This document shows positions 2,795-60,303 of a DNA stretch of 64,000 nt, piece by piece. The notes beneath the pieces are model-generated. The model was given only the letters and a program-made list of their open reading frames with translations. It did not search any database and was not told the DNA's origin. This DNA comes from Eledone cirrhosa (Eukaryota), in the NCBI GenBank assembly GCA_964016885.1, contig OZ024741.1, positions 95,232,001 through 95,296,000 on the forward strand. The letters are read 5' to 3'. How positions within the stretch are numbered: position 1 is the first letter of the stretch; each line of letters begins with the position of its first letter. The position numbers were made by a program, and so were the translations under genes.

Positions 2795-3060
2795 CATCAT
2801 AATCATCACCGTTTAACGTCCATTTTCCATGCTAGCATGGGTTTCAAGAGTTGTCTTGTGAGATAGAACTATTCCTGGCTTGGTTTCTACAGCTGGATGC
2901 CTTTCCTAATGCCAATCACATTTACAGTGTGAACTGGGTGCCTTTTATCATGACACTAAAACGACCAGCTTATAAGGTGGACCAGATGCTTTTTGCTGTG
3001 TCACCAACATGACCATTTTACAGGTTGAACTGGGTGCTTTTTGTCATGACACACATAAAA
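2795..3060 (-). mobile_element. Old RTE-tailed element 3' end
   Basis: (GAT)n tail, terminal hairpin, ggatgcc.ttcctaa motif and repeated pseudoknot-like units; similar copy at about 13900-14190. Confidence 0.6.
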
Positions 3061-6949: not shown

Positions 6950-8739
6950 GAGAGAGAGAGAGAGAGGGGGGGGGGAGTTCAAATTACAATAATACCATAA
7001 AACAACATTATTTCATTTACTTACCCACAACTAATTATAAAGTGATACTGGTAGTAGGACTAAATACAGCTAGTCAATTTGAACACATCAATTAATGAGG
7101 CTCTAATTGCTTATTAAGTCCCAAAATGATTTGGGAAAAAAACAAATTAATATTTTAAACAAAATAAACCCACTTTAAATTTTCTTAATTTCAGACAGAC
7201 CCTGTCACCAGGATGGGAGCACTGGATGGCATTGTCCCCTTCCCTTTCTTTTCAGTGGTGCATCCCCAGATTTTGAAAATAAAGTTTATAAAAAAGATCC
7301 TGAAATACGTTCGTTATGAAATATTTCAGGTTCTGGAGTGCCCCACGACCACGAAAGCCTTGCAACAGGCCTGACTTTAGATTGTTTTTAATTATAATTT
7401 AAAAGTAAAGTTGTACAAATCAAAAATCAGCAAATTTAGCTCCTGAATTAGTGAAACTAAGCTCAGATTTATAACCCCTACTATAATAGGTTAAAATATT
7501 GGACTTAATGATCATAATATCTTAGGTTCAACTCCTGGACTGGGTAGCATGTTGTGTTCTTGAACAAAACACTTCGTTTCATATTGCTGTACCAACAGCT
7601 GATGGGAGTTAACCCTGTGATGGGCTAGTGTCATTGTACCCTCTGCCACTTAAACACCAATGAAACCAGAATATGCTCCAGACTTGGGGCAGACTTTAAC
7701 TATGTACTTGGCAAATACACCAAGATGCCAATATTTATTCAGGGAAAACAACATTTACTACTACTATAAACAGTAGGGGCACTGTTTATAATTTGTCGAT
7801 GTTTCATTAACTTATAGATAAAGAGTTGAAGGTTGTTGATTACATAGTTTGTACCCCACCTTAACAAATGTATTACCTTGTTATAATTATAGAAAACATA
7901 TTGTCCTGTATTGTCCTACTTTGTGTAAACCCTTGTGGTTAATAAAGAAAGCATTTTTATATATTAGACACAATTAGTATTATTAAAGACAGAATTTATA
8001 TAATTTATAGAGATTTGGACTAAATGTTTTGTGGTATTTAATTCCACTGAAATCAACTGAGATTTTCATCCTTTCAGAGTCGATAAAATAAAGCACCAAT
8101 CCAGTACTGGTATAATCAACTTTCCTCTTTCCTCGATTTGCTGGCCTTGTGTTGGTGCCATGAAAAATGCACCCATTACACCCTGTAAGGTAGTTGGTGA
8201 TAGGAAGGGCAATGGGCTATAGAAACCATGCCAAAAAAGGATGGAGAAGACTCTTTAGTGTGCCATGTTCACAACCTCTTTGGTGTTGTTGATCTACATG
8301 ATAAATGCACCCAGTAATTCTGTAAAGTGCTTGGTGATAGGAAGGGTACCCAACCATAGAAAAAAGAGCAAAAAACAAGGGTTAGGATGATTATTTTGTT
8401 GTGTCAAGGTTATGATAACCTTCTTAGTGCTGGTGTCATAATGAAATGCACTCTGTATAGTGTGGGAATGTATGTGAGAAGCAGAGGCCCTAGCCTGTTT
8501 GAGCAGTCAGTAGCTCCAATTAAGTACTGACTTGGTCTGTGATAATGTTGTCTAACTCCTGTTAGCATGGAGAATGATGACACACCCATCTTTTGTTTGT
8601 CATAGAATCTTCCCAGCTTCATTAAAATCCCAGGAAAATATCCAAGATCTGAAAATGTCAAAAAATTTAGAATTACAATTTTGAATCATCTCATTGTTTT
8701 TTTAAAGAGAGGCCAATGAATCTATAAATGTATGTGTAA

Positions 8740-12274: not shown

Positions 12275-12613
12275 ATCATCATCATCATCATTTTACGTCC
12301 GCTTTTCCCTGCTTGCAAGGGTGGGACGGGAACTGATTCTGGCTTGATTTCTACAGCTGGATGCCCTTCCTAACACCAACCTCATTTACAGTGAGTGCTG
12401 GGTGCTTTTTTTCCGTGGCACCTCCACGACCACTTTGCAGTGGAATGATAGGGACCTCAGTCCCTATCATCTCATTTCTACAGCTGAGTAAACTGGAGCA
12501 ATGTGAAATAAAATATCTTGCTCAAGGAAACAACACATCACCCGGTCTGAGAATTGAACTCACAACCTTTCGGTTGCAAGGCCAATGCTCTAGCCACTAA
12601 GCCATGTGCCTCC
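12275..12613 (-). mobile_element. Full-length SINE S1 (tRNA head, CORE-like body, RTE-type 3' tail)
   Basis: tRNA-like head (tggcttagtgg, gagttcaattc), pseudoknot units, terminal hairpin, (GAT)n; six copies in the window. Confidence 0.9.
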
Positions 12614-13857: not shown

Positions 13858-15164
13858 TCAATACATTAATAGAGAAAGTACATATATATTTTATATATCT
13901 TATCATTGTTTAATGTCCATTTTCCATGCTACCATGAGTTAGATGAGTTGCCCCTTTGATCAGGTGACCATTTCTTGCTTATACAGAACTGTTTTGGGCT
14001 TGGTTTCTACAGCTGGATGCATTTCCTTATGCCAACCACATTTACTGCGTGGACTAGGTGGTTTTTATTGTGGCACCAAAATGACCAACTTATAGGTCTG
14101 GACCAGAGGCTTTCTGTAGTGTCACCAATATGACCACTTTTTAAGGTGGTTTGGGTACTTTTTGTCACATCACACATAATACATAGATGTTCCAAATTAT
14201 TGCATGGATGACTATTAGCAATGTAAGTGAAGGAGGGCAATATTGACTAGGAATTAAAGCTGTTGGAAAAGAATATATTTTGAGGAGGTGGAGTGGCTGT
14301 ACACTTGTCTCGTCCTCTCACCTATATTAAAAGGAAGGTAATATGGAACCAATCTACTTAAAACTATCCTTGTTTTATGATACAAAACTGTTCATTTTAA
14401 AGTTTTCATATTTAGATTAAAATATCCAACATAATTTTATCTAAGGCCTCTTCATTAAATTGTGTTCTGCAAAGCAACTTAAAAAATAAATAATAATTGT
14501 TTTTTGCCATATACTTCCAGATTACCTATTATTTTCAAAAAATTACTTAAGCACCTAAGCAATGTATTTTATTAAAAATATGGCAAGGAAAAGATTAATG
14601 TTTAGTTTTAAAATCTTTGAAGTTTGTGGGTTAGAAATAATTGGTATAGTGGGTGTATTCCGGAGAGGAAGGATTAGTCAAAGTCCTTAGTGTCAAGGTC
14701 AAGGAATTTGAATAAAGTGAAGGTTATGGTAGAATAAGATGTTTTAGTAACAAGTTTAGACAGAAGTGCTGTTTAGTCACTAAGTTCAATAGAGTAGGGG
14801 CCATTGTAGTAACAGTAAAATGATCAGAGAGAGAGGGATTTACTGTGCCACTGTGTTGCTAAAAATACATTCATCTATTATTTGATTCACTTCAACTCAA
14901 CAGAGCTAGTAATACTTTTTTGAATATTTTAAAAATTAAATCCAAGAGAGACAGCTATGATTTGCCAAAGGTTAGAATTTTTAATAAAGCAAGTAGCTTC
15001 ATGTAGTCATGATTTATGTAAACTTTCTTGGACTATTACTTGTCAGATTCTGTCATTGTTTGAAATTATGGTTTGATGCTGTAATCAATACATAGCTTCT
15101 AGTGTAGCAGAAAATAACATCAATAAGTAATGACAAGTTAGTGTGCTGTGACAAAATTGATTAC

Positions 15165-18539: not shown

Positions 18540-18587
<48 letters not shown>

Positions 18588-18590
<3 letters not shown>

Positions 18591-19096
18591 TCATACGTCC
18601 GCTTTCCCCTGCTTGCAAGGGTGGGACGGATCCTATTCAGCACAGCATCTCTCCACTTGTCACAGTTCTTCGTCATCTCCTCCGTGAGTTTCAGCAATCT
18701 GAGGTCTGCTCTCACCACCTCCGTCCATGCTTTTCCTAAATTTTTTTTTTTTTCATTTTACATCTGCTTTTCCCTGCTTGCAAGGGTGGGACGGGAACTG
18801 ATTCTGGCTTGATTTCTACAGCTCGATGACCTTCCTAACACCAACCTCATTTACAGTGAGTGCGGGGTGCTTTTTTTCCGTGGCGCCTACATGACCACTT
18901 TACAGTGTGGGCTGGGTGCTTTTTTGCAGTGGAATGATAGAGACCCCCAGTCCCTATCATCTCATTTCTACACCTGAGTAAACTGGAGCAATGAGAAATA
19001 AAGTGTCTTGCTCAAGGAAACAACACATCATCTGGTCTGAGAATTGAACTCACAACTTTTTGATTGCAAGGCCAATGCTCTAACCACTAAGCCTCC
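18588..19096 (-). mobile_element. RTE 3' fragment plus SINE S1 in tandem
   Basis: VRADLRLLKL..WRDAV peptide with tail, followed by an S1 copy. Confidence 0.75.
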
Positions 19097-20336: not shown

Positions 20337-20408
20337 TCAAAATAATTAAAATAATTTTTGTTAGTTAATATTATGCTACTATCATATATTGGTTAATTCA
20401 TATTCATA

Positions 20409-20765
20409 TGTATTTTTTTGTTATCTATTTAAGGTTTAAATACGGTGTTTTTGTCGTATTGAACAGAACAAATCTTGCAGTTTTGCTTTTTGTTAAATCG
20501 CTTGTTAAACATTCATAACCTTCCAGCTATCTTAATTCTATCGTATTTGTCCAATTCCTTAATTCTATCGTATTCTCAAACAAAAAACAAAATCCTTCCC
20601 ATTCTACTTATAAATTACTTTAAATATATATAGTATGCTACTTGAAAGTCAAAAATCCGCTCCACCCCTTCACCCTCCTTACTACTCCACGAGGGGCTGC
20701 GGTCAGCCACAATATCTCTCCCCCTTCCCCCCCTCTCTTTCTTCCCCTCTATCTCTCTCTTAGCT

Positions 20766-20800
<35 letters not shown>

Positions 20801-21086
20801 AGATAAGTTCTCCTTCATGTTTATTCACTTTCGCCAATCCACCGCTGCTTCAATTATTTCTATGATGTACTCATGTAAATCGTAAAGTACAAATTCTTCT
20901 CTCCATTCCACGCTCAATTTCGTACATAGTCCAAACAAACATCCAATCTCGCAAAATCCGAAATCTGTATTTTTTTGTTATCTATTTAAGGTTTAAATAC
21001 GGTGTTTTTGTCGTATTGAACAGAACAAATCTTGCAGTTTTGCTTTTTGTTAAATCGCTTGTTAAACATTCATAACCTTCCAGCTA
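20409..21086 (+). repeat. Identical 121-bp direct repeats (20409-20529 and 20966-21086)
   Basis: Direct comparison, no mismatch seen. Confidence 0.9.
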
Positions 21087-21308
21087 GCTACCCCACACCC
21101 CTCCCTCCCGCCCCCACACGCCACCATACTTAATACGTGGACCAATCATAAGCCAGAGCCCCCCCCCCCCCCCCCCGCATCACCACCATTATTATAAGCC
21201 AGAGCCCCCCACCCCCACGCATCACCATTATTATTATTATTACGCGGACCAAATCATAAGCCAGAGGCCTATACTATCGCTTGCCCGGTTGCCTTCGATA
21301 TATGATGG

Positions 21309-24300
21309 ATGGATGGACGGACGGACTGCGGAATCCTGGAGAGTGGAAGGGAGAGAAAAATCTGGACGCCCAGAGCGAAAATGCCAAAGTTAAAGTCAAA
21401 TTCACCTCGTGGACGAGAATGCGAGCACTCCTCTTTGTTTCGTCCGCGGATGGCTAACATAACCCTATCTCCTCCCGCCCCCCACCACCCCCACCCTCCA
21501 AACGCAACCCAAAACTTCAGAGTTGGTACCATAAATGTAGGCACCCTAAAGGGTCGCGCTAACGAGGTTGTAGAAATGCTTGAACGTAAGGAGGTCGATG
21601 TTTGTTGTATTCAAGAGACCAGGTGGAGGGGTGGGTCTGCTAGATTCATTGAGGGTAAAAAACGATGTTATAAGCTTTTCTGGGTGGGAAACGACGATGG
21701 GCTGGGTGGAGTAGGAATCATGGTAGCAGAAAAGTGGGCAGATAAGATAATAGACGTAAATAGAGTGAACGACAGAATAATTAAAATAAGACTTGTCCTC
21801 AATAGAACTACGGTGACAGTAATATCTGCGTACGCACCCCAATCCGGACTGCCCGGCACTATAAAAGACAGATTCTATGAGACACTGTTGCTAACTACCT
21901 CCCAAATATCTGACAGTGACTATATAATTATTGCAGGCGACCTAAATGGTCATGTTGGACAACATTGTGACGGCTACGACGAAATCCATGGAGGCTATGG
22001 GTTTGGTACTAGAAATGAGGAAGGCTCCAGAATCCTGGAATACTGTGATGCAAATAACCTAACTATCTGTAACACTAACTTCAAAAAACGTGACAATCAC
22101 CTGATTACCTATAGATCCGGGGAACACACAAGCCAGGTAGATTATATCCTTACCAGAAGACGTGACAGAGTGTCTGTTGTAAACACTAAATCCCTCCCCC
22201 ATGAAGAATGCACCTCCCAACATAGACTGATAATTAGCGACCTCATAGTCAGGACGAGACGTACCCGACAGCAGAAGAGGACTATCCTCAGGAGGAAAAT
22301 ATGGAAACTAAAGGACCCCACAGCCAGAAATAAATTTCAAAGCATATTACTTGATGCTTTCGACAGTAAGGAAGAGCATCTAGAATCGGACAATATAGAG
22401 GGACAGTGGAAATTTCTGAAAGCAAACCTGCTGTTGGCGACAGACGAAGTCTGTGGCTGGAGCAGGCCTGTAGGCAGGAGGAGAGTAACATGGTGGTGGA
22501 ACAATAGGGTGGAGGGGTCAATTAAGGCCAAAAAGCAGGCTTGGAAAGTATGGCGGGATGGGGGAAGTAGAGTAGACTATCAAGTGGCCAGGAGGGAAGC
22601 TAGGAGAGAAGTGTACTTAGCAAGAAGGGAAGCTGAGGAAAGAAAGTTCAAGCATGTTCTACAACGCGATGACCAAAAACGTGAGGTGTTCAGGATTGCC
22701 AGGCAATGCGTCAAGGAAAACCGTGATATTGTCGGGGAGAAGTGTGTACTTAACGATGATGGCATACTTGCCATCACCGACACTGATAAGAAGGTAGCTT
22801 GGAAGTGTCACTATGAAAGGCTACTAAATGAGGAGAATAAATGGGAGAAAGACAGTCTCCCCCATATCGACCCGATAGAGGGACCAGCAGTGTTAGTCGA
22901 GGGGAGTATAATAAGTAAGGCAATCAAGGATATGAAGACTGGTAAGGCGGCTGGGCCTTCGGAAATAGTTGCTGAGATGCTGAAGGCATCTGGCACGGTG
23001 GGACACACCATGGTCACCCGCATAGTTAACCAAGTCGTACAGAATGGGGTTGTTCCGAAGGACTGGCATAGCAGCATCATCGTTAACTGTTATAAGGGTA
23101 AAGGAGACGCCCTAGATAGGAGTAACTATAGAGGCATTAAATTAATCGACCAGGTCATGAAGGTCACGGAAAAAGTAATAGCGCAACTAATCAGAGAGAG
23201 AATTGATCTAGATGAAATGCAGTTCGGGTTTGTGTCAGGCAAAAGCACCACAGACGCTCTTTTCATAGTACGACAACTACAGGAGAAGTACCTAGCTAAA
23301 GGTAAACCCCTCTACTTAGCTTTTGTCGACCTGGAGAAAGCCTTCGACAGAGTCCCCCGCTCCATTATCTGGTGGGCTCTTAGAAAACTAGGCGTTGACG
23401 AATGGCTTGTGAGGGCTATACAAGCCATGTATAAAGAAACAGTCAGCAAGGTTAGAATTAACAACGAATATAGTGAAGAGTTTAGCGTAAAAGTTGGCGT
23501 CCATCAGGGCTCTGTTCTCAGCCCCCTACTATTTATTATTGCCCTTCAGGCTATAACAGAGGAGTTCAAGACAGGCTGCCCATGGGAACTCCTATACGCA
23601 GACGACCTGACACTCATAGCGGAATCAATGGCCGAGCTAGAGAAGAAATTCCAAACATGGAAGCACGGCCTAGAGTCAAAAGGACTTAAAATTAACCTGG
23701 CTAAGACCAAAGTTCTAGTTTGTAGGAAAGAAAACAAGGCGGCGGTCCCTTCTGGGAAATGGTCGTGCTCGGTATGTAGGAAAGGCGTAGGTAGAAACTC
23801 CATCTTATGTCCTAAATGCAAAGTATGGGTGCATAAAAGATGTAGTGGGATCACAGGTAAGCTAACTAAGAACATAGACTTTACATGTGGCCGGTGTTCT
23901 GGTGCAATAAGTAGCAGCAAGTGCCCAAAAAATACTAGCTCTTTCAATTGCGCAGAGGGTTCTATAGAAATAGTGGACAGCTTCCGTTACCTGGGCGATA
24001 AAATCAGCAGTGGGGGAGGGTGCTCTGAAAGTACTGTAGCTAGAGTCAGAACTGGTTGGAAAAAGTTCAGAGAGCTTATACCACTATTAGCTGCTAAAGG
24101 GTTCTCCCTAAAAATGAAAGGCAGGTTGTACGATGCCTGCATACGAACAGCAATGTTGCATGGTAGTGAGACCTGGGCATTGTGTGCAGAGGATATACGC
24201 AGACTAGAGAGGAACGAAGCTTGCATGCTCCGCTGGATGTGTAACAGTAATATACGTGAACGGCAAAGCATAAACGAACTAAGGAAAAAATTAGAGATAA

Positions 24301-24563
24301 GAGGGATCAGATGTTGTTTACTCGAGAGAAGGCTGCGTTGGTATGGACACGTGATGCGCATGAAAGTCGATAGCTGTATTACAAAGTGCAGGGCAATAAA
24401 GATAGACGGTAGCCACGGAATAGGCAGACCTAGAAAAACATGGGATGAGCTGATAAACTCCGACCTCACACACTTACACCTCTCCAAGACAATGTCACTG
24501 GACCGTGACCTTTGGCGGTACTCAGTAACAGAGAAGACCCGCCTTGCCAGTAGGCATCTCTAA
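21309..24563 (+). CDS. RTE LINE polyprotein: AP endonuclease, reverse transcriptase and an inserted PHD-type zinc finger (true start may be 21381 or 21449)
   Basis: GTINV, IQETRW, SAYAPQ, GDLNGH, VDYIL, SQHR; NYRGIKL, QFGF, FVDLEKAFD, GVHQGSVLSP, YADD, FRYLG; RRLRWYGHV and GRPRKTW typical of RTE; no stops over 1084 aa. Confidence 0.95.
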   Translation: MDGRTDCGILESGRERKIWTPRAKMPKLKSNSPRGRECEHSSLFRPRMANITLSPPAPHHPHPPNATQNFRVGTINVGTLKGRANEVVEMLERKEVDVCCIQETRWRGGSARFIEGKKRCYKLFWVGNDDGLGGVGIMVAEKWADKIIDVNRVNDRIIKIRLVLNRTTVTVISAYAPQSGLPGTIKDRFYETLLLTTSQISDSDYIIIAGDLNGHVGQHCDGYDEIHGGYGFGTRNEEGSRILEYCDANNLTICNTNFKKRDNHLITYRSGEHTSQVDYILTRRRDRVSVVNTKSLPHEECTSQHRLIISDLIVRTRRTRQQKRTILRRKIWKLKDPTARNKFQSILLDAFDSKEEHLESDNIEGQWKFLKANLLLATDEVCGWSRPVGRRRVTWWWNNRVEGSIKAKKQAWKVWRDGGSRVDYQVARREARREVYLARREAEERKFKHVLQRDDQKREVFRIARQCVKENRDIVGEKCVLNDDGILAITDTDKKVAWKCHYERLLNEENKWEKDSLPHIDPIEGPAVLVEGSIISKAIKDMKTGKAAGPSEIVAEMLKASGTVGHTMVTRIVNQVVQNGVVPKDWHSSIIVNCYKGKGDALDRSNYRGIKLIDQVMKVTEKVIAQLIRERIDLDEMQFGFVSGKSTTDALFIVRQLQEKYLAKGKPLYLAFVDLEKAFDRVPRSIIWWALRKLGVDEWLVRAIQAMYKETVSKVRINNEYSEEFSVKVGVHQGSVLSPLLFIIALQAITEEFKTGCPWELLYADDLTLIAESMAELEKKFQTWKHGLESKGLKINLAKTKVLVCRKENKAAVPSGKWSCSVCRKGVGRNSILCPKCKVWVHKRCSGITGKLTKNIDFTCGRCSGAISSSKCPKNTSSFNCAEGSIEIVDSFRYLGDKISSGGGCSESTVARVRTGWKKFRELIPLLAAKGFSLKMKGRLYDACIRTAMLHGSETWALCAEDIRRLERNEACMLRWMCNSNIRERQSINELRKKLEIRGIRCCLLERRLRWYGHVMRMKVDSCITKCRAIKIDGSHGIGRPRKTWDELINSDLTHLHLSKTMSLDRDLWRYSVTEKTRLASRHL

Positions 24564-24665
24564 CAAACTACACCCCGTCCCGCCACCACCCCCACCCCAT
24601 CCACACCACCCCGTTCTATGTAAAGTTATGTTGGTGCCGCGCCATCCAGGCCGAAACAAATGAGA

Positions 24666-24800
24666 TCGTGTAGGTGTCACGACAAAAAAACACACAGTCC
24701 ACGCTGTAATGTGGCCGTGTAGGCAACACGGTAAAAACCTCCCAGACCCACACTGTAAATGTGGTTGGTGTTAGGAAGGGCATCCAACTGTAGAAAACCT
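24666..24800 (+). promoter_or_regulatory. Predicted chain of H-type RNA pseudoknots in the RTE 3' UTR
   Basis: Consecutive stem / loop-pairing modules with compensatory substitutions between subfamilies. Confidence 0.6.
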
Positions 24801-24856
24801 GCCAGACAGTCCTATGCGAGCAAGACAATCACTCTTGCCTCAAGTGGGACTACCCC

Positions 24857-24889
24857 CGTCCAAACCCATGCAAGCGTGGAACACGGACG
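24857..24889 (+). promoter_or_regulatory. 3'-terminal stem-loop before the (GAT)n tail
   Basis: cgtcc/ggacg and ccatgc/gcgtgg; pairing kept in RTE-B and SINE S1. Confidence 0.7.
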
Positions 24890-25860
24890 TTAAATGTTGA
24901 TGATGATGATGATGATGATGTTAATAATACTGTTTTGTTTGAAAGTTGACTTAGAAACTTCATTCAATAATTAGATGTTATACATTCCAACAGCTGTTTG
25001 AGACAGATCATATTCCTTTGTTTCTGTAGTAACGCTGATGGTAATATCTCATATCCATGTCACCAACATTGGTCGTACCTATCTGACTTTGTTGAGAAAA
25101 ATTCTAGTTTCATAAAAGTAGCAATTTTATAATCCTTTCATTAACATATTCCTAATGAAAAACATTACCTTTAACTTTCAAATCATTTTTGAAAATAATC
25201 AGGAATTTAGAGAGATTTAGTAATATTATTAACTTTCTCATTATTAAGTTGGTGTTTGGAACAAGTCTTAACACAGCTTCTGACATAAAATCATAATGGA
25301 AGGCTTTTAGATAAATATAAACACTTTAAAAAAGCAAGTTTTGTATCATAGAACTAGGGGTGGTTTCAGGTTGCTTGATATTAAAAAGGTTAAAAAGTAT
25401 GGTTTAATACCACCATCTGGCTCCCCTGTAAGTTTAGTGGATTCCATTCAACTACAAGCATTCAGGACCAGTTTCTGGTTTAAGGATACCTTTTTCATTC
25501 ACCCCCTCAAGTCTGAAAGGCCATGAAAAGTTGACAAAATGATAGAAAACAGGTTATATTGTTTTATGGCATCAATTTTTGTACTTTTGTGAAAGCCCGT
25601 AGTCTAGTAGTTAGGGTGTTGGACTCACAATCATAAGACGGCAGGTTTGATTCCTTGACTGTGTGCTACGTTGTGTCCTTGAGTAAAATACTTTATTTTC
25701 ACTCTGCTCCTTTTGCCAGAAATTGCACCTGGCAGATAGTATCAGCAATGGAAAGACCAATGGAAACATTGTTTCCTTGGTCTGATCTGATGATCAGCTT
25801 CTTTCTGTTTTCCTTTTCTTTTTTAGCACTTTACTGTTCTGAGTTCATATTGCTCCATTG

Positions 25861-29599: not shown

Positions 29600-29993
29600 C
29601 ATCATCATCATCATCACCGTTTTACGTCCGTTCTTCCACGCTAGCATGGGTTAGACGGGTTGTCCTGTTGTGGGCAGTGTCTGGTCGGCTGACCATGCCT
29701 TGCTCATACAGGAACTGATCTGGCTTGATTTCTACAGCTGGATGCCCTTCCTAACACCAACCTCATTTACAGTGAGTGCTGGGTGCTTTTTCGTGGCGCC
29801 TACACGTCCACTTTACAGTGTGGGCTGGGTGCTTTTTTGCCGTGGCACCTCCACGACCACCTTGCGGTGGGGGGGGGGGGGCATATCGTTTATATGCTTC
29901 AGCATGTACCCATGGGAGGTCGGGTACCCTGTATTACTGCGTGACGCCAGAAGTCACGGTCGTGTGTCATTGACTTTGAGAGGTGTAGTTGGG

Positions 29994-33147: not shown

Positions 33148-35117
33148 ATGGCTGAGCCACGTCCCCCAGCGATATGTCTGCTGTTGTGCGACAACGACGT
33201 GGAAGTTGAGAGGAGCGCTACAGCGAAATTAACACAAATTGATAACACAAACACCACCACAAACAATGTAAACAAAGACACCAATGATACCAATGAGAAC
33301 TCTAATTTTTAAAAAAATTACAGTAACAGCGACAACGAAAATACAGATAACAAAAAAAAAAATAACAAATACAACAATATCAACACCACTAACATGAAAA
33401 CAAATAGCGACAACACCAACAGCAACATTACCAACTGCTCCGAGAACAACGGTGGCAACAAAGACAACAATGATAACAGCGACAGTGTTAACAACCACAC
33501 CAACGAGAACAACGACAACAACAACAACACTCCCAACTAAAACAAGAAGAACACTTTCGCTGCAGCAGCAGCAAAAAAGAGGCCATGCTTCAACATGGAC
33601 CTCTCAAACAAAGATGAAAAGTTGGCCCAGGCATGGAAGCTCATCAAGCAAGAGCAAACCTGGGCCAACTTAACTGTCCCGGTAAAAGCTATTGAGGCAG
33701 TGGAGCGCAGAACGGTGCATTATAGATGCATCTCAGCACAAACCAAAAGGGCAGCTTTAATCCCACAAGAAGATGTCGAAGTCGCGCTGAGGTGCATCAG
33801 AGAAGACACCCAGTACATAGAGAGGGGCAGACAGTACGGCACCATTTCGGTGTTGTTCAAGTCAGAAGCCCTCGCTATGAAACACGCTATGACTCCTTGC
33901 AAAACCAGCAAGGTCATAATGTACCCCCTCCCACATGGGAAAAAGAACGGCCCGTCTCCGCATTCCCAGAATCCCACCAGGACTTGACATGTGGTGGCTT
34001 CTGGGATGTGTGATTGTGGAGGGGATGGATACCGTCCCTATAAAAGTGACCAGAACGGCCAGAGAGGAGTGGTCCGGGGTTGACCTGGAGATCCTTCTCC
34101 AGATGAGGCCCGAGAATTTGAAGACAATCCCGGACCACATCCGCCTTCAGAATGGGACGGTCATTCACATTATGACTGAAGGCAAAAGGCCGCAGTGTTT
34201 TGTTTGTGGGGAAAAACCCCGTTTGCGAGCCTTCTGCCCTCAACTACTGAAAGAGGCAAGGGGTCGAAAGGCTCCACTGTTGCCGGCGCCGGGGCGAGGA
34301 CCACAACCAATACCAGCACCGGCAAAACCACCAACAACAACACCAATAGAAAGACCACCACCAACATTGACCACCCGAGGAAAGCTGTCAAATTCCCCCT
34401 CCCCCCCAAAATACACACACCAATAAAACCATAAACATACATACAGACACACAGACACAGACCCCTCATCTACCAGTAGTGAAGATGAGGGAAAACCAAA
34501 ATCACCTAAGATACAAAAAAGGAAATACAAAAAGAAAAAAAAAAACTCAACAAAGCACAAAATCACCCACAATAAAAAACGCAGACACCACCCACGCAAA
34601 CATCTCTCCAACAACACCAACATCAACACCACTATCACCATCACCAGAATCCCCCAAACGCAAACAACCTAAACAGACGCAAGAACAAATATACACACAA
34701 ACATCTGAAACCACAGACACCACACTCACAACAAACACAGACACAACCGAAACAACACCACCAAAACCATCACCACCACAGCCACGCAAACAAATAAAAT
34801 CACACCAACAAAATATACAAAACTTCGTGCTCGTCAGGAGGGCCAACAAGGAACTGATGGCCCTCGTAGCACGAAGTGAAAATATACAAAAAGAGGGGGA
34901 AATTTTTAAATCGAGCACATTTCGCGTGCCGGAAGATTTGGTTCTGGTGCGAATGTCGCTCGATATATTCAAAGAAATACGAGACAGCTTTCCACGGGAC
35001 GTGGGAACCCCAAACGTAAAACCCACTTCAAGACTTTTAAAGGGGTTCCCAAAAGAAACTCCACCAACTATAGAGGTCGAACAACCCGACCTTCACAAGA
35101 GCCCAGAAGGTAAGTAA
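33148..35117 (+). pseudogene. Tx1 ORF1 (gag-like, zinc knuckle), disrupted
   Basis: Frameshifted fragments; RPQCFVCGEKPRLRAFCP knuckle remnant; T/N/P-rich low-complexity flanks. Confidence 0.7.
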
Positions 35118-35148
35118 ACCTTCCTCTATCTCTTTTTAACCTGCCAAC

Positions 35149-38100
35149 ATGGCCGTATTAAGAGTAGGATGTTTAAATGTTCGAGGCCTGGGATCGTCCT
35201 GGAAGCAGGGTCACCTGCTCAACGACCTCAGGTCTATAGAAATGGATGTAATTGCCGTCCGCGAGACCAGGATTTCCGACATGCGTGCACTAGCCCCCAT
35301 TTTCGACGACTATCAGATCTTTGCATCTGTTAGCCGGCCGGGAATGGGAGGAGGGGTGGCAGTGCTGTTTAGGAAAGGCCTGGATCTCGAGGTAGGGTCG
35401 ATCTTCCGGGACCCGGACGGGAAGTTGGTGGTCCTGGACGTGAACAATAACGAAGGTAGTGCCTTTAGACAGGTGGCCGTCTATGCTCCTACTGGGGCAG
35501 GACGGCCGGACTTCTTTAGACGCCTGGAAGTCTTTCTGGGTACGTCTCGCCCTTTACTGTTAGCGGGGGACTGGAACGGCATCTTAGATGCACGCTGGGA
35601 CTGTGTGGGAGTATCCGATAGGAGCGGGGGGTGCAAAAGCCTCAAGAACCTGATCAGCCAGTTCCAACTGTCTGACAGGTACCGACTAGATTTTCCTAAT
35701 GCGCCAGTGTGGACCTGGGCTAACCGCATAGGGTCATTTGATCGTATATAGACAGGATATTCATTAGGAAAATAGACAGAAATAGTGTAAGCTGTCCATG
35801 TTTTGAAACAGTCGCCTATTCAGATCACAAGTTTGTGATCTGTATGGTCGACCTAGATAAGACGCGTAGGTTAGGACCTGGTTACTGGAAGCTAAACATG
35901 TAATTTCCGGCACGTAAGGCTTACAGGGACCAGGTCAACAATTTAGTTAAGAAAAAGTTGACAGGGGGAGTCGTCAACAATAGATGGTGGGGGGCTCTCA
36001 AAAGAGAGATTAGAGTAATGTCGATAGAGTTTAGCAAAGAAGTAGCGTTAGAGAAAAATAGAAAGGAGGGGGAGTTGCTAGATAAGTTACATGAGGCTAT
36101 TGGTAGTGGCATTGCAACTGACGTGCTAGCGGCGAGAATGGCATTAGACCATTTCTTCAATGCGAAACACGAAGGTTGCATTGTCAGAGCTAAGGCGCGT
36201 GCTCTGAGAAACAAGGGAACCAAAGCTGTTCGATGGGCCCACGTGGCAGAGGCGCAGCGTGGTAATAAAACCACGATTCGGTCTTTGACGGACCGAGACG
36301 GGCACGAGCTGAGCAATTCCAAGAGGATGTGTGAGGCCTTTTGCCAACATTTTGCTCGGTTGTTCGGGGGAAGTGGCGGGTCAGAGATGGTGGCGGACTT
36401 CAGTCCCTACCTCGATGGCTTGCTGCAACTCTCAACGGCTGACACTGGGCGCTGTGAAAGGCCAAGATTCAGGATGCTCTTGTCGGCTGCATGAGGCGCA
36501 AGTCACCTGGTTTGGATGGTCTGTCCCACGAGCTTTACGTAAATATGCCATACTTGTTCCCCAATCTCCTCAAAGCCCTCTACTGCAACTGGCAGCAAAA
36601 CGGGAGTATTCTCAGTTCTGTGAGCCGGGGCATAGTGACGCTGATTAGGAAAGACGAGAACAAGAGGGACACATTAGACAATTTCAGCCCCATAACTCTG
36701 CTCAACACAGAGTTTAAGATTTTGGCCAGGGTGTTAGCGAAGAGGTTGGTGCTTGTCGTCGGGTATTTGGTTGGGGAGCATTCGATAGGGTCAACCATCG
36801 GTACCTGGAGGCTGTCCTCAAGGCGGCTGGCTTCGGCCCCGTCTTCAGAAGCTGAATCACTGCAATGCACAGCGGCACCTGCTCGATGGTCAAAATTAAT
36901 GGCCACCTCTCGGAACCGTTTCAGGTCTCCCGATCGGTCCGTCAAGGGTGCCCTCTCTCCTCCCTTCTGTACGTATTGACTCTCGAGCCTTTACTGCGGA
37001 AGCTGGAGATGTTGCAGGGCATCCCGCTCGAACCGGGACGCGGAAAGGCTGTGTCGGCTTATGCGGACGACATCACCGTGATGGTGTCGGACACCTCAGA
37101 AATCGAGGTGGTCGGCAACTTATTGGAGGAATATGAAAGGTTGACGGGAGCAAAACTTAACCCGGAAAAGTCAGTAGGCTTGCAACTCGGCACCTGGAGA
37201 GGCAAGTCCATGCCGTCCAACAGCGTCGTTAGGCGCTGGACGGACGGACCGGTAAAGTTGCTAGGGGTTTGGTTCGGGCCAGACCTCCAGGTGGATAAGA
37301 ATTGGGACGAGGTGACGGGCAGAGTAGCCAGTCTCACCCAGAAATGGGCTGGGATGAAGCTATTACTGAAAGGTCGGGCGGATGTGGCAAACGCGTACAT
37401 CGCGTCTGTCATCTACTACCGTCTGACCGTTGTCCCTTGCCCCCGTTCGCGCCTCACCATCTTGGAGCGGCTCCTCTTCAAATTCTTGTGGAGGGGTCAG
37501 GTTCCGCTGGTGAGGCGGTCCATCTGCTGCCAGCACCCTCTACGTGGAGGGATGGGCATGCCGTGGCTAATGATGCGCAGGCACGCGCTGAGGCTGCGGC
37601 ATCTCCAGATATTCTGCCTAAACGGTGAACAGGTGTGGTCACCGTTTGTCAGATGGGCCTTTCCGCAGCTCGTTTCTTTGACTGAGCTGCAGTCCTGGGT
37701 CAAGAAGAGACCGAGACTGGGTGACTGGCATCTGGAATGTTGCCAGGCACTCACTGCCCTCTACCAGGTGGGCAATGCGGTCAGTGGAACTTCCACTCTC
37801 GAGTTCTATAGAGGATTAGTGGTGGGCAAGTGCGACGACGCACTCGGAGAGGCTCTGGGAGTCAACGAAGTTGAACTAACCAGTCTGTACCGGAGGACTT
37901 TCGAGCCGGGGACGATGGATAATTTCCAAAAATCCCTCGCTTGGCAGTGCTACCGGGGGGCACTGCCGGTTCGAGATAAACTCTACAGGCACAGAAGTGC
38001 TGTCAGACGGACCTGCCCGAGATACGCGCAGAGCGACGAAACCGTTCTGCACGCACTCGTCCAGTGTCCGTGCATTACTGACTTGTGGAGTTATGTTGAA

Positions 38101-38430
38101 CAGCTGTTGTTGCATGTAGAACGGATCCGGCTATCGGCCGAGTCCATAGTGAAGTTCGACCCGCCGCCTTCTTTTGGCCAGGAAGGGCAGGCAATTTTCC
38201 TCTGTCTGGTGGCAGTAGCGAAAGAGGTTGTATGGTGAATGAGGTTGAAAGGACTGAAGACAGACACTTTTCTCTTCGGCCAATCCCTCATCAACTTTTT
38301 CAAGTTTCACTTGGAAAGGAAGGTGAGGGTGGAGAGAGAAGTGTTGCCCCCCAGTACATTTGCTGAAAGGTGAGTGAATGTGGCGAGAATGGCCCGTGTG
38401 AGTGGGCCTACTCTGGTCATGCGGCTGTAG
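35149..38430 (+). pseudogene. Tx1 ORF2 (APE, RT, C-terminal zinc finger), disrupted
   Basis: LNVRG, VYAP, GDWN, SPGLDG, PITLLNTEFKIL, SVRQGCPLS, AYADD, KLLGV, CPR..ETVLHALVQC; stops, frameshifts and a deletion near 36780. Confidence 0.9.
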
Positions 38431-58930: not shown

Positions 58931-60303
58931 ATCATCATCATCACCGTTTTACGTCCGTTCTTCCATGCTAGCATGGGTTAGACGGGTTGTCCTGTTGTGG
59001 GCAGTGTCTGGTCGGCTGACCTTGCCTTGCTCATACAGGAACTGATTTTGGCTTGCTTTCTACAGCTGGATGCCCTTCCTAACACCAACCTCATTTACAG
59101 TGAGTGCTGTGTGCTTTTTCCGTGTCACCTACACGTCCACTTTACAGCGTGGGCTGGGTGCTTTTTTGCTGTGGCACCTCCACGACCACCTTGCAGTAGG
59201 AGGGTGTGGGGGCATATTGTCTATATGCTTCAGCTTGTACCCATGGGAGGTCGGGTACTCTGTATTACTGCGTGACACCAGAGGTCACGGTCGTGTGTCA
59301 TCGCCTTTGAGAGGTGTAATTGGGTAAGGTCGGCTTTTATCACCTCATTCCAGGTCTTCTTGGGTCTCCCCACTCCGCGGTTTCCATTGACTTCTAGTGC
59401 TCTGCACCTTTTTATGCAGCTGTCATCCTTCATACGCATCACATGTCCATACCAACGCAACCGCCTCTCCTGCACACAGCCTTTGATTCCTCTTATGCTC
59501 AGTCTCTCTCTCAATTCATTTATTCTTTGTCGTTCACGTATATTACTATTACACATCCATCGGAGCATGCAGGCTTCGTTTCTTTCTAATCTACATAAGT
59601 CTTCCACCTTCAGCGCCCAGGTCTCACTACCATGTAATATTGCTGTTCGGATACACGCATCATACAGTTTGCCTTTCATTTTGAGGGAGAAGCCTTTAGC
59701 AGCTAGCAGTGGCAGTAGTTCCCTGAACTTCTTCCATCCCGTTCTTACCCTAGTTATTGTACTTTCTGAACACCCACCTCTGCTGCTAATTCAGTCACCT
59801 AGGTAGCAGAAGCTGTCTACTGTTTCTACAGAGCCCTCCCAGAGATTGGTGGTACTTGTTTCCTGTGGCTGTTTGCTGCTTGCTGTCCCAGCACAGCTGC
59901 TGCATGTGAAGCTTACATTCTTAATTAAGCTTCCTGAGATCCCGCTACATCTCTTGTGTACCCATTGTTTGCATTTGGGGCAGCGAATGGAGTTCCTACC
60001 TACACCTTTCCTACATACTGAGCTAGGCCATTTCCCTGAGGGGATCTGGGTTCTGTTTTCTCGTCTACTTACAAGGACCTTAGTCTTTGTCATGTTGACT
60101 TTGAGACCCTTTCTTTCTAGTCCCTGCTTCCAAGTTTGGAATTTCTTCTCTAGTTCTACCATAGATTCAGCTGTAAGTGCGAGGTCATCAGCATACAGGA
60201 GTTCCCATGGGCATCCGGTCTTAAACTCCTCCGTTATTGCCTGCAGGACTATGATGAACAGGAGAGGGCTAAGAACAGGGCCCTGGTGGACACCAACCTG
60301 TAC
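58931..60303 (-). mobile_element. 5'-truncated RTE-B copy
   Basis: GVHQG, YADD, PHD finger, RRLRWYGHV, GAT tail; 8-bp TSD actacttc. Confidence 0.93.

Follow-up and report, generated by a model that had tools for sequence, protein, structure and literature searches.

The 3' UTR of a full-length LINE in the 3.0 Gb genome of Eledone cirrhosa carries a chain of small repeated modules. Comparison across families well supports an origin of this chain as a 5' UTR element that was relocated and tandemly expanded, and not as a purpose-built poly(A) substitute. The chain is predicted to fold as stacked H-type pseudoknots, a fold that is moderately supported. More tentatively, we propose that it is a putative position-independent cis site by which the RTE protein would recognize and load its RNA, alongside the 3' stem-loop. 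Throughout, the window is the whole 64,000-nucleotide stretch of DNA that was analyzed, and coordinates are positions within it. The host element, RTE-A, has the following layout.

20383..21380, + strand: RTE-A 5' region, ~1 kb in common with other copies, without H and without an Rfam ribozyme
21381..24563, + strand: single ORF of RTE-A, with APE endonuclease, RT and PHD finger
24666..24693, + strand: unit 1, module A (PK1), TCGTG/CACGA, loop GTGT with ACAC 3' of an A-run
24694..24714, + strand: unit 1, module B (PK2), ACAG/CTGT, CCACG with TGTGG
24715..24742, + strand: unit 2, module A (PK3), strong hairpin, loop pairing of only 3 bp in a shifted register
24743..24764, + strand: unit 2, module B (PK4), CAG/CTG, CCACA with TGTGG
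24770..24803, + strand: element H, predicted fifth pseudoknot, GTT(A)GGA/TCCAAC, loop GGCA with TGCC past an A-rich linker
24857..24889, + strand: terminal two-stem tail, CGTCC/GGACG enclosing an inner hairpin, kept in related RTEs
24899..24919, + strand: (GAT)n tail sequence of RTE-A

RTE-A has one ORF with APE and RT, a microsatellite 3' tail and dispersed 5'-truncated copies. The label RTE for it and its relatives is taken over from the initial annotation; the APE tree was built with unnamed relatives only. The PHD finger lies 3' of the RT domain (23766-23897; aa 821-864 of the frame from 21306) and is common to many relatives. Elsewhere in the window, a broken two-ORF non-LTR element of another clade, with ORF1-like, APE and RT frames, occupies 33500-38240 (+).

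The 3' end of RTE-A consists, in order, of two 49-51-nt units (TRF period 49), H, a spacer, the two-stem tail and (GAT)n. In each unit, module A is a hairpin whose loop is complementary to five bases past an A-run, and module B is a CAG/CTG stem whose loop is complementary to xGTGG past TAAA. The helices of consecutive modules adjoin with zero linker. All of the complementarities listed for PK1-PK4 and the H-region hairpin in the initial annotation of this DNA are present. A 13-nt anchor has 21 matches in the window (at most 2 mismatches) versus 1.19 expected, and its 24-nt form occurs 110,433 times genome-wide. The number of modules varies between families, and older copies lie at 2880-3060, 8150-8365 and 14000-14190, both as previously claimed. 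The other copies and families in the window are as follows.

29716..29868, - strand: RTE-B copy, two units and H
59045..59195, - strand: RTE-B copy, part-decayed, two units and H
12282..12613, - strand: SINE S1, with A-/B-box-like head, CORE-like body, one unit and H, and RTE-C-type tail
18580..18760 (approximate ends), - strand: RTE-C 3' fragment, ORF end directly into the tail, no chain
8150..8365, + strand: old copies in tandem, with homology to the 5' UTR segment of RTE-C (long hairpin, A, B, H)
2880..3060, - strand: old copy, ~three units and H
14000..14190, - strand: old copy, several units and H

The homology of 8150-8365 to the RTE-C 5' segment has a local score of 103, and the highest of 1000 shuffles reached 54. 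Most RTE-A, RTE-B and S1 copies start within (TA)n runs, which suggests a target preference. One RTE-A subfamily (L013, L218, L228 and others) has a 112-nt duplication of PK2 to H that gives it two H elements; among 49 rows, 10 have the junction at one shared position. Additionally, the unit is found in 48-49-nt minisatellite arrays of up to ~10 kb (G000:C1:4643633-4653603 and others; L247, L233, L249, L265), and a 61-nt array derives from B+H. Because the unit also spreads in this bare 48-nt form, differences in module number may have no adaptive meaning.

The initial annotation described a chain of four stacked pseudoknots, of which two back-to-back were recovered. A blind H-type scan (second stem of at least 4 bp) gave two consecutive pseudoknots in RTE-A, RTE-B (29727) and S1, a result equalled by 8, 3 and 4 of 300 shuffles, respectively, and zero consecutive pseudoknots on the reverse strand of the same three. 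However, four were found in none of four copies, and the RTE-B copy at 59060 gave a single pseudoknot, with 166 of 300 shuffles as good. PK1, PK2, PK4 and H each have two interleaved stems and loops of feasible length, an arrangement that is weak in PK3. The ccgtgt/acacgg hairpin of PK3 is strong, but its agg/cct pairing belongs to a shifted register seen in RTE-A only; in the homologous register, 2 of 5 pairs are kept, and young RTE-B has a C.A mismatch. By stack energies, the pseudoknots outdo the best nested fold at a penalty of 7 kcal but mostly not at ~10-11, and nested alternatives dominate for the chain in ViennaRNA. Comparison with Rfam matched the chain to no known family: there were zero families at gathering score across the window, nothing relevant over 24550-24950 at E up to 10, and nothing over the RTE-A 5' region at E up to 5. 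The viral contigs searched had no match.

Element H, previously described as a gttgg/ccaac hairpin, is better read as a predicted fifth pseudoknot. The hairpin does appear in the nested MFE fold, but it is unconserved across animals, with 82.5% of cells paired and 349 of 500 shuffles as high. Modeled as a pseudoknot over 14 aligned copies, H has 90.9% of cells paired, and none of 500 shuffles is as high. The cross-animal pseudoknot has the form GTY(A)GGA/TCCRRC, with loop GGGCA pairing to TGCY. A scan of prokaryote genome contigs with an H pattern found 53 loci, which were split by flanking ORFs, tails and heads into 24 animal retroelements (contaminant), belonging by eye to about 10 animal families, and 29 chance hits. 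Most stem letters of H were set by the pattern, with the Y/R pair and the partner strand left free. These free Y/R positions are paired in 24/24 element hits versus 15/29 chance hits, and the GCY partner is present in 24/24 versus 12/29. Within the genome itself, GCY is found in 255 of 292 H copies. The animal-type LINEs and SINEs in these prokaryote-filed contigs (L112-L114, L118, L121, L122, L125-L130, L135, L139, L140, L145, L146, L151, L153, L156-L159, L161) are likely contamination.

Several of these loci place H relative to other parts of the element and show its homology to 5' UTR sequence of RTEs from other animals. H lies directly 3' of a twister-P1 match (below gathering score) in L158 and L159, and upstream of the APE ORF in L112, L113 and L158. 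In L153, H is located in the 3' UTR without A/B modules; therefore, A and B are not generally needed. Other RTE-like families of the octopus genome (L164-L172) open with an intact-looking twister-P1 of 39.8-49.8 bits (cut-off 67.2). At 9 twister-bearing RTE loci of this genome we see a pseudoknot-compatible stem, a GTARAAA linker and a loop complement (by eye) immediately 3' of the ribozyme, then the APE ORF. Twister cores within 35 nt of H in this genome gave 0 matches. Another conserved hairpin, GTCG..CGAC, then TAA, stands 5' of H in an old family (L020, L224, L273, L276, L130). This hairpin could represent the 3' portion of an HDV-like ribozyme; Rfam gave no match on L130.

We aligned units by a sequence-only profile over 1.34 Mb and examined covariation at two levels. 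In an R-scape-like test on copies (249 distinct units), 1 of 20 proposed pairs was significant, namely columns 39-51 (A-T to T-A), with E 0.010 in the set and E 0.62 over all 1,275 pairs. Because copies decay neutrally once inserted, the test was repeated at the subfamily level. From 645 near-full units, 253 were dropped as tandem arrays, and 299 of the remaining 392 were clustered, giving 10 subfamilies of at least 3 insertions each. At this level 159 of 179 cells are paired (null 0.80, p 0.007). Both sides have changed in 5 of 18 pairs versus 0.83 under a null that leaves CpG decay and recombination out of account (3 of 3000 simulations as high, p 0.001), although two of the five double changes had already been used to propose the fold and the remaining three alone give p ~0.04. 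Slid controls have 0-1 double-changed pairs. One further alignment, which contained a misregistered row and decayed single copies, was left out of the count. The claim of a modular structured RNA element with covariation is thus moderately supported between lineages and weak between copies. Both of the replacements on which it was built, gtgt/acac to ggtgc/gcacc and caca/tgtg to ctca/tgag, are real double changes.

A firm new paired change was found in an older relative of RTE-A, which has GGAG/CTCC where others have GGTG/CACC. Among the first 100 listed of 2,614 matches, this pair is A-T in 89, G-T in 3, mismatched in 8 and T-A in none. The change arose in a 3'-located family, and its descendants moved to AGGT/ACCT and later to AGG/CCT, the PK3 pairing of the initial annotation. 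Furthermore, RTE-C and run X2, from another organism, add GTGC/GCAC with GGTG/CACC, the X2 variants coming from loose ends. Pair-breaking changes among subfamilies are G.A, A.G and A.C at helix ends, and an internal C.A in unit 2 of young RTE-B. Stem by stem, paired changes fall in both stems of module A, only in the second of module B, and in one pair of the first stem of H. The CAG/CTG stem of PK2 and PK4 is invariant among subfamilies (30/30 cells), and therefore ctca/tgag backs the second helix of module B, not the knot itself. On its own, this second helix is also compatible with a nested hairpin.

The chain had been assigned to the LINE/SINE 3' UTR. That location holds for RTE-A and RTE-B, which have it in the 3' UTR only, but not for RTE-C, another LINE family and the third in this genome, with an amino-acid identity of about 57-69%. 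In RTE-C, A+B+H is located 64-82 nt upstream of the APE match in all 6 copies reaching that far, and H is absent within 300 nt 3' of the last ORF match in 20 of 20. The RTE-C chain has its own pair-keeping variants and ends ~45 nt 5' of an in-frame AUG, with an A/C-rich spacer between. For RTE-A, no H-like motif was found within 1.5 kb upstream at 14 of 15 loci, one locus being the window itself, and the lone match is outside the shared 5' region; one full-length RTE-B likewise has no H upstream. We had considered the chain dispensable in RTE-C, given its bare 3' end, a view overturned by the chain in the RTE-C 5' UTR. S1 joins the chain to an RTE-C tail, and all four families (RTE-A, RTE-B, RTE-C and S1) keep the chain somewhere, each at one end or in the body. 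The nearest metagenome relatives end in a bare tail (80 loci), and an H profile run over these loci, mostly ORF 3' ends, gave one weak match (E 1.5). The APE tree does not resolve the order of A, B and C, so the direction of the move rests on the outgroups (L112, L113, L158 and the twister families).

The 5' UTR position would be ancestral for the chain. The RTE-A/B lineage may have acquired its 3' chain when it captured the end of a SINE or of a bipartite non-autonomous element, with its 5' UTR probably replaced alongside, and the A+B unit would subsequently have been duplicated in tandem. The helices are predicted to form one continuous stack whose minor grooves take up the A-rich linkers, and the RTE protein would bind the resulting chain.

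S1 has the bipartite design of RTE-derived SINEs, with a head, an RTE 5' UTR piece and an RTE 3' tail. The small-RNA nature of the head was judged from A-/B-box-like motifs (Pol III boxes), and the body is one that we take to be CORE-like. The 3' end of this body (12470-12500, -) has the module-B layout, CAG/CTG with CTCA/TGAG, or CCCA/TGGG in one copy. It aligns to PK4 of RTE-B with p 0.0003, and with ~0.05 for the ancestral type. It is possible that a small pseudoknot is common to CORE domains.

Stringent LINEs recognize a 3' stem-loop. This recognition is also treated in PMC5135761. In the elements described here, the terminal two-stem tail fits that role, and the chain is separate, upstream and movable, ~50-190 nt upstream of the tail where reverse transcription must start. 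The inner and outer stems of the tail change in pairs among distant RTE relatives (by eye, 13 tails; e.g., L031-L035, L050). The tail is likely a better candidate than the chain for the RT priming signal, and the previously suggested docking site for the RT survives as a second site.

The tobamovirus upstream pseudoknot domain and TYMV-type stalks are built of back-to-back H-type pseudoknots of 3+5 bp without linkers. The chain resembles these stalks, as they are generally known, in its 3+5 bp back-to-back geometry and absence of linkers, but it has no sequence or Rfam relation to them and is also found in 5' UTRs and a SINE. It thus occurs outside the 3' UTRs of translated RNAs as well, as the RTE-C 5' UTR and S1 demonstrate. 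The suggestion that the chain substitutes for poly(A) or acts as a 3' translation enhancer is poorly supported, given the chain in the RTE-C 5' UTR and H in the 5' UTRs of relatives. The chain is also kept by a Pol III-box SINE, and it lies upstream of the tail.

RTE LINEs have been described in octopus (PMC9115989), and stem-loops in mollusc SINE domains (PMC4758252). RTE 5' UTR pieces are part of bipartite non-autonomous LINEs and SINE bodies, with a function that is proposed but unknown (Kojima 2018, PMC5786205). Like the chain, the Kojima piece comes from the middle of the 5' UTR, is conserved between distant animals and is kept by SINEs with an RTE 3' tail. The accessible text of that paper differs in suggesting that a transcriptional regulator binds the piece; it reports no RNA structure and no case of the piece within the 3' UTR of an autonomous LINE (PMC5786205). 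Its supplement text (figure images aside) did not contain the H motif, and the Kojima piece may be a different 5' UTR domain. The S1 chain with its RTE-C tail corresponds to the bipartite design described for RTE-mobilized SINEs (PMC5786205). Twister ribozymes occur at RTE 5' ends, for example in Perere-3 (Liu et al. 2021, PMC8501958), and the accessible text uses "pseudoknot" for the twister alone. By eye, Perere-3 shows a stem with a bulge, as well as a GTAGAAAATCAA linker and a loop complement of 7 bp, at the place that H takes behind the twister in L158 and L159 (PMC8501958). The chain differs from a twister in having no catalytic core. RTE 5' UTR pieces in SINE bodies and ribozymes at RTE 5' ends are therefore already known; the pseudoknot behind the ribozyme, the chain and its relocation appear to be new. 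We found no description of these three in the literature searched, with subscription papers, Repbase, patents, figure images and bioRxiv supplements outside its scope.

We rank a recognition site for the RTE protein ahead of the other explanations, as the retention of the chain in an untranslated SINE and at either ORF end would fit binding better than translation or end protection. The chain is kept at either end and in a SINE with the tail of another family, and a pair-keeping change took place in a 3'-located family, all of which favors a position-independent cis signal over a cap or poly(A) substitute. It is unlikely that the chain acts instead as an RNA stabilizer, an exonuclease roadblock that at first protected the uncapped RNA end generated by a 5' ribozyme and even now prolongs the lifetime of the RNA. 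Such a role would suit the position of H directly behind the twister in L158 and L159, the analogous pseudoknot-compatible elements behind twisters in this genome and in S. mansoni Perere-3, the cleaved RNA of which remains abundant in yeast (PMC8501958), and the R2 ribozyme fold described as cap-like protection (PMC13708176). However, the chain of RTE-A/B lies at too great a distance from the 5' end for it to protect the ORF and, being upstream of the tail, cannot guard the tail against 3' decay. The 5' truncation points of genomic copies, a small and indirect sample, also show no pile-up at the chain borders. Templates made by Xrn1, or RT stops at the chain, are not favored by the same absence of a pile-up at the 5' ends in this small sample of genomic copies. 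Less probable again is a role in translation, the main idea of the initial annotation, in which the chain would be an IRES-like or cap-independent enhancer in the 5' UTR and, once relocated, would enhance translation from the 3' end or stand in for poly(A). The distance of the RTE-C chain to the AUG, with its A/C-rich spacer, and the layout resembling that of tobamovirus stalks are in keeping with it. Cleaved, uncapped Perere-3 5' UTRs drive reporter translation (PMC8501958). Against this, the non-coding S1 keeps the chain, relatives end with a bare tail, and there is no Rfam match.

We give about the same low weight as to stabilization to the view that the chain is mostly neutral baggage, with H brought in by a captured SINE end and A/B an unselected, slippage-prone minisatellite whose complementarity came from short inverted copying. 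The two patterns with 15,163 and 9,480 matches, those listed being largely 48-nt arrays up to ~10 kb, would be expected from such a repeat, as would the 112-nt internal duplications in RTE-A, the weak copy-level covariation, the decay of PK3 and the marginal energies. Neutrality accounts less readily for the lineage-level double changes and pair retention, the concerted change of both module A stems, the H pairing kept across about 10 animal families, and the keeping of the chain by all four families. It is very improbable that the chain cleaves itself as a ribozyme or functions as a variant of the twister. A module-B-like piece upstream in RTE-C does match the 3' end of the L159 twister at 15/16 letters (p 0.0016, 1 of 4 twisters, post hoc). 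However, zero Rfam ribozymes match even at E 10, P1, L1, P2 and the T2 partner are all missing from the chain, module B aligns to the 4 twister-bearing loci with p 0.08-0.72, and cleavage at the chain would sever the ORF from the tail. The module-B-like piece is seen upstream in RTE-C at L399:2540-2565 and in L393, L398, L405, L408 and L409, and is possibly a ribozyme remnant. A twister origin of module B was not adopted: anchored alignments were not significant, and the L159 match (1 of 4 twisters) alone speaks for it. Likewise, derivation of the unit from H by insertions was not accepted (p 0.005-0.6, 36 comparisons).

A broader version of the preferred reading is more speculative than the recognition site itself, and we consider it rather improbable. 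RTEs across animals would carry a hitherto unrecognized pseudoknot behind the 5' ribozyme as a second, movable signal for the RTE protein, here moved to the 3' UTR and amplified to a stacked chain, partly from twister remains, and the 3' end of the CORE SINE domain may be built on the same knot.

Should the chain be neutral, it would still show clearly how a LINE captured a bipartite end and seeded 48-nt minisatellites. RTE UTR pairs serve as gene-writing templates tuned by screening, and a defined cis element would be useful for RTE-based gene writing (PMC13708176). Why SINEs keep "body" pieces of the RTE 5' UTR is an open question (PMC5786205). A 35-nt structure with natural compensatory variants and a natural 5'-to-3' transplant makes this question directly testable. 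If true, a movable signal for the RTE protein would explain the 5' UTR piece kept by RTE-mobilized SINEs.
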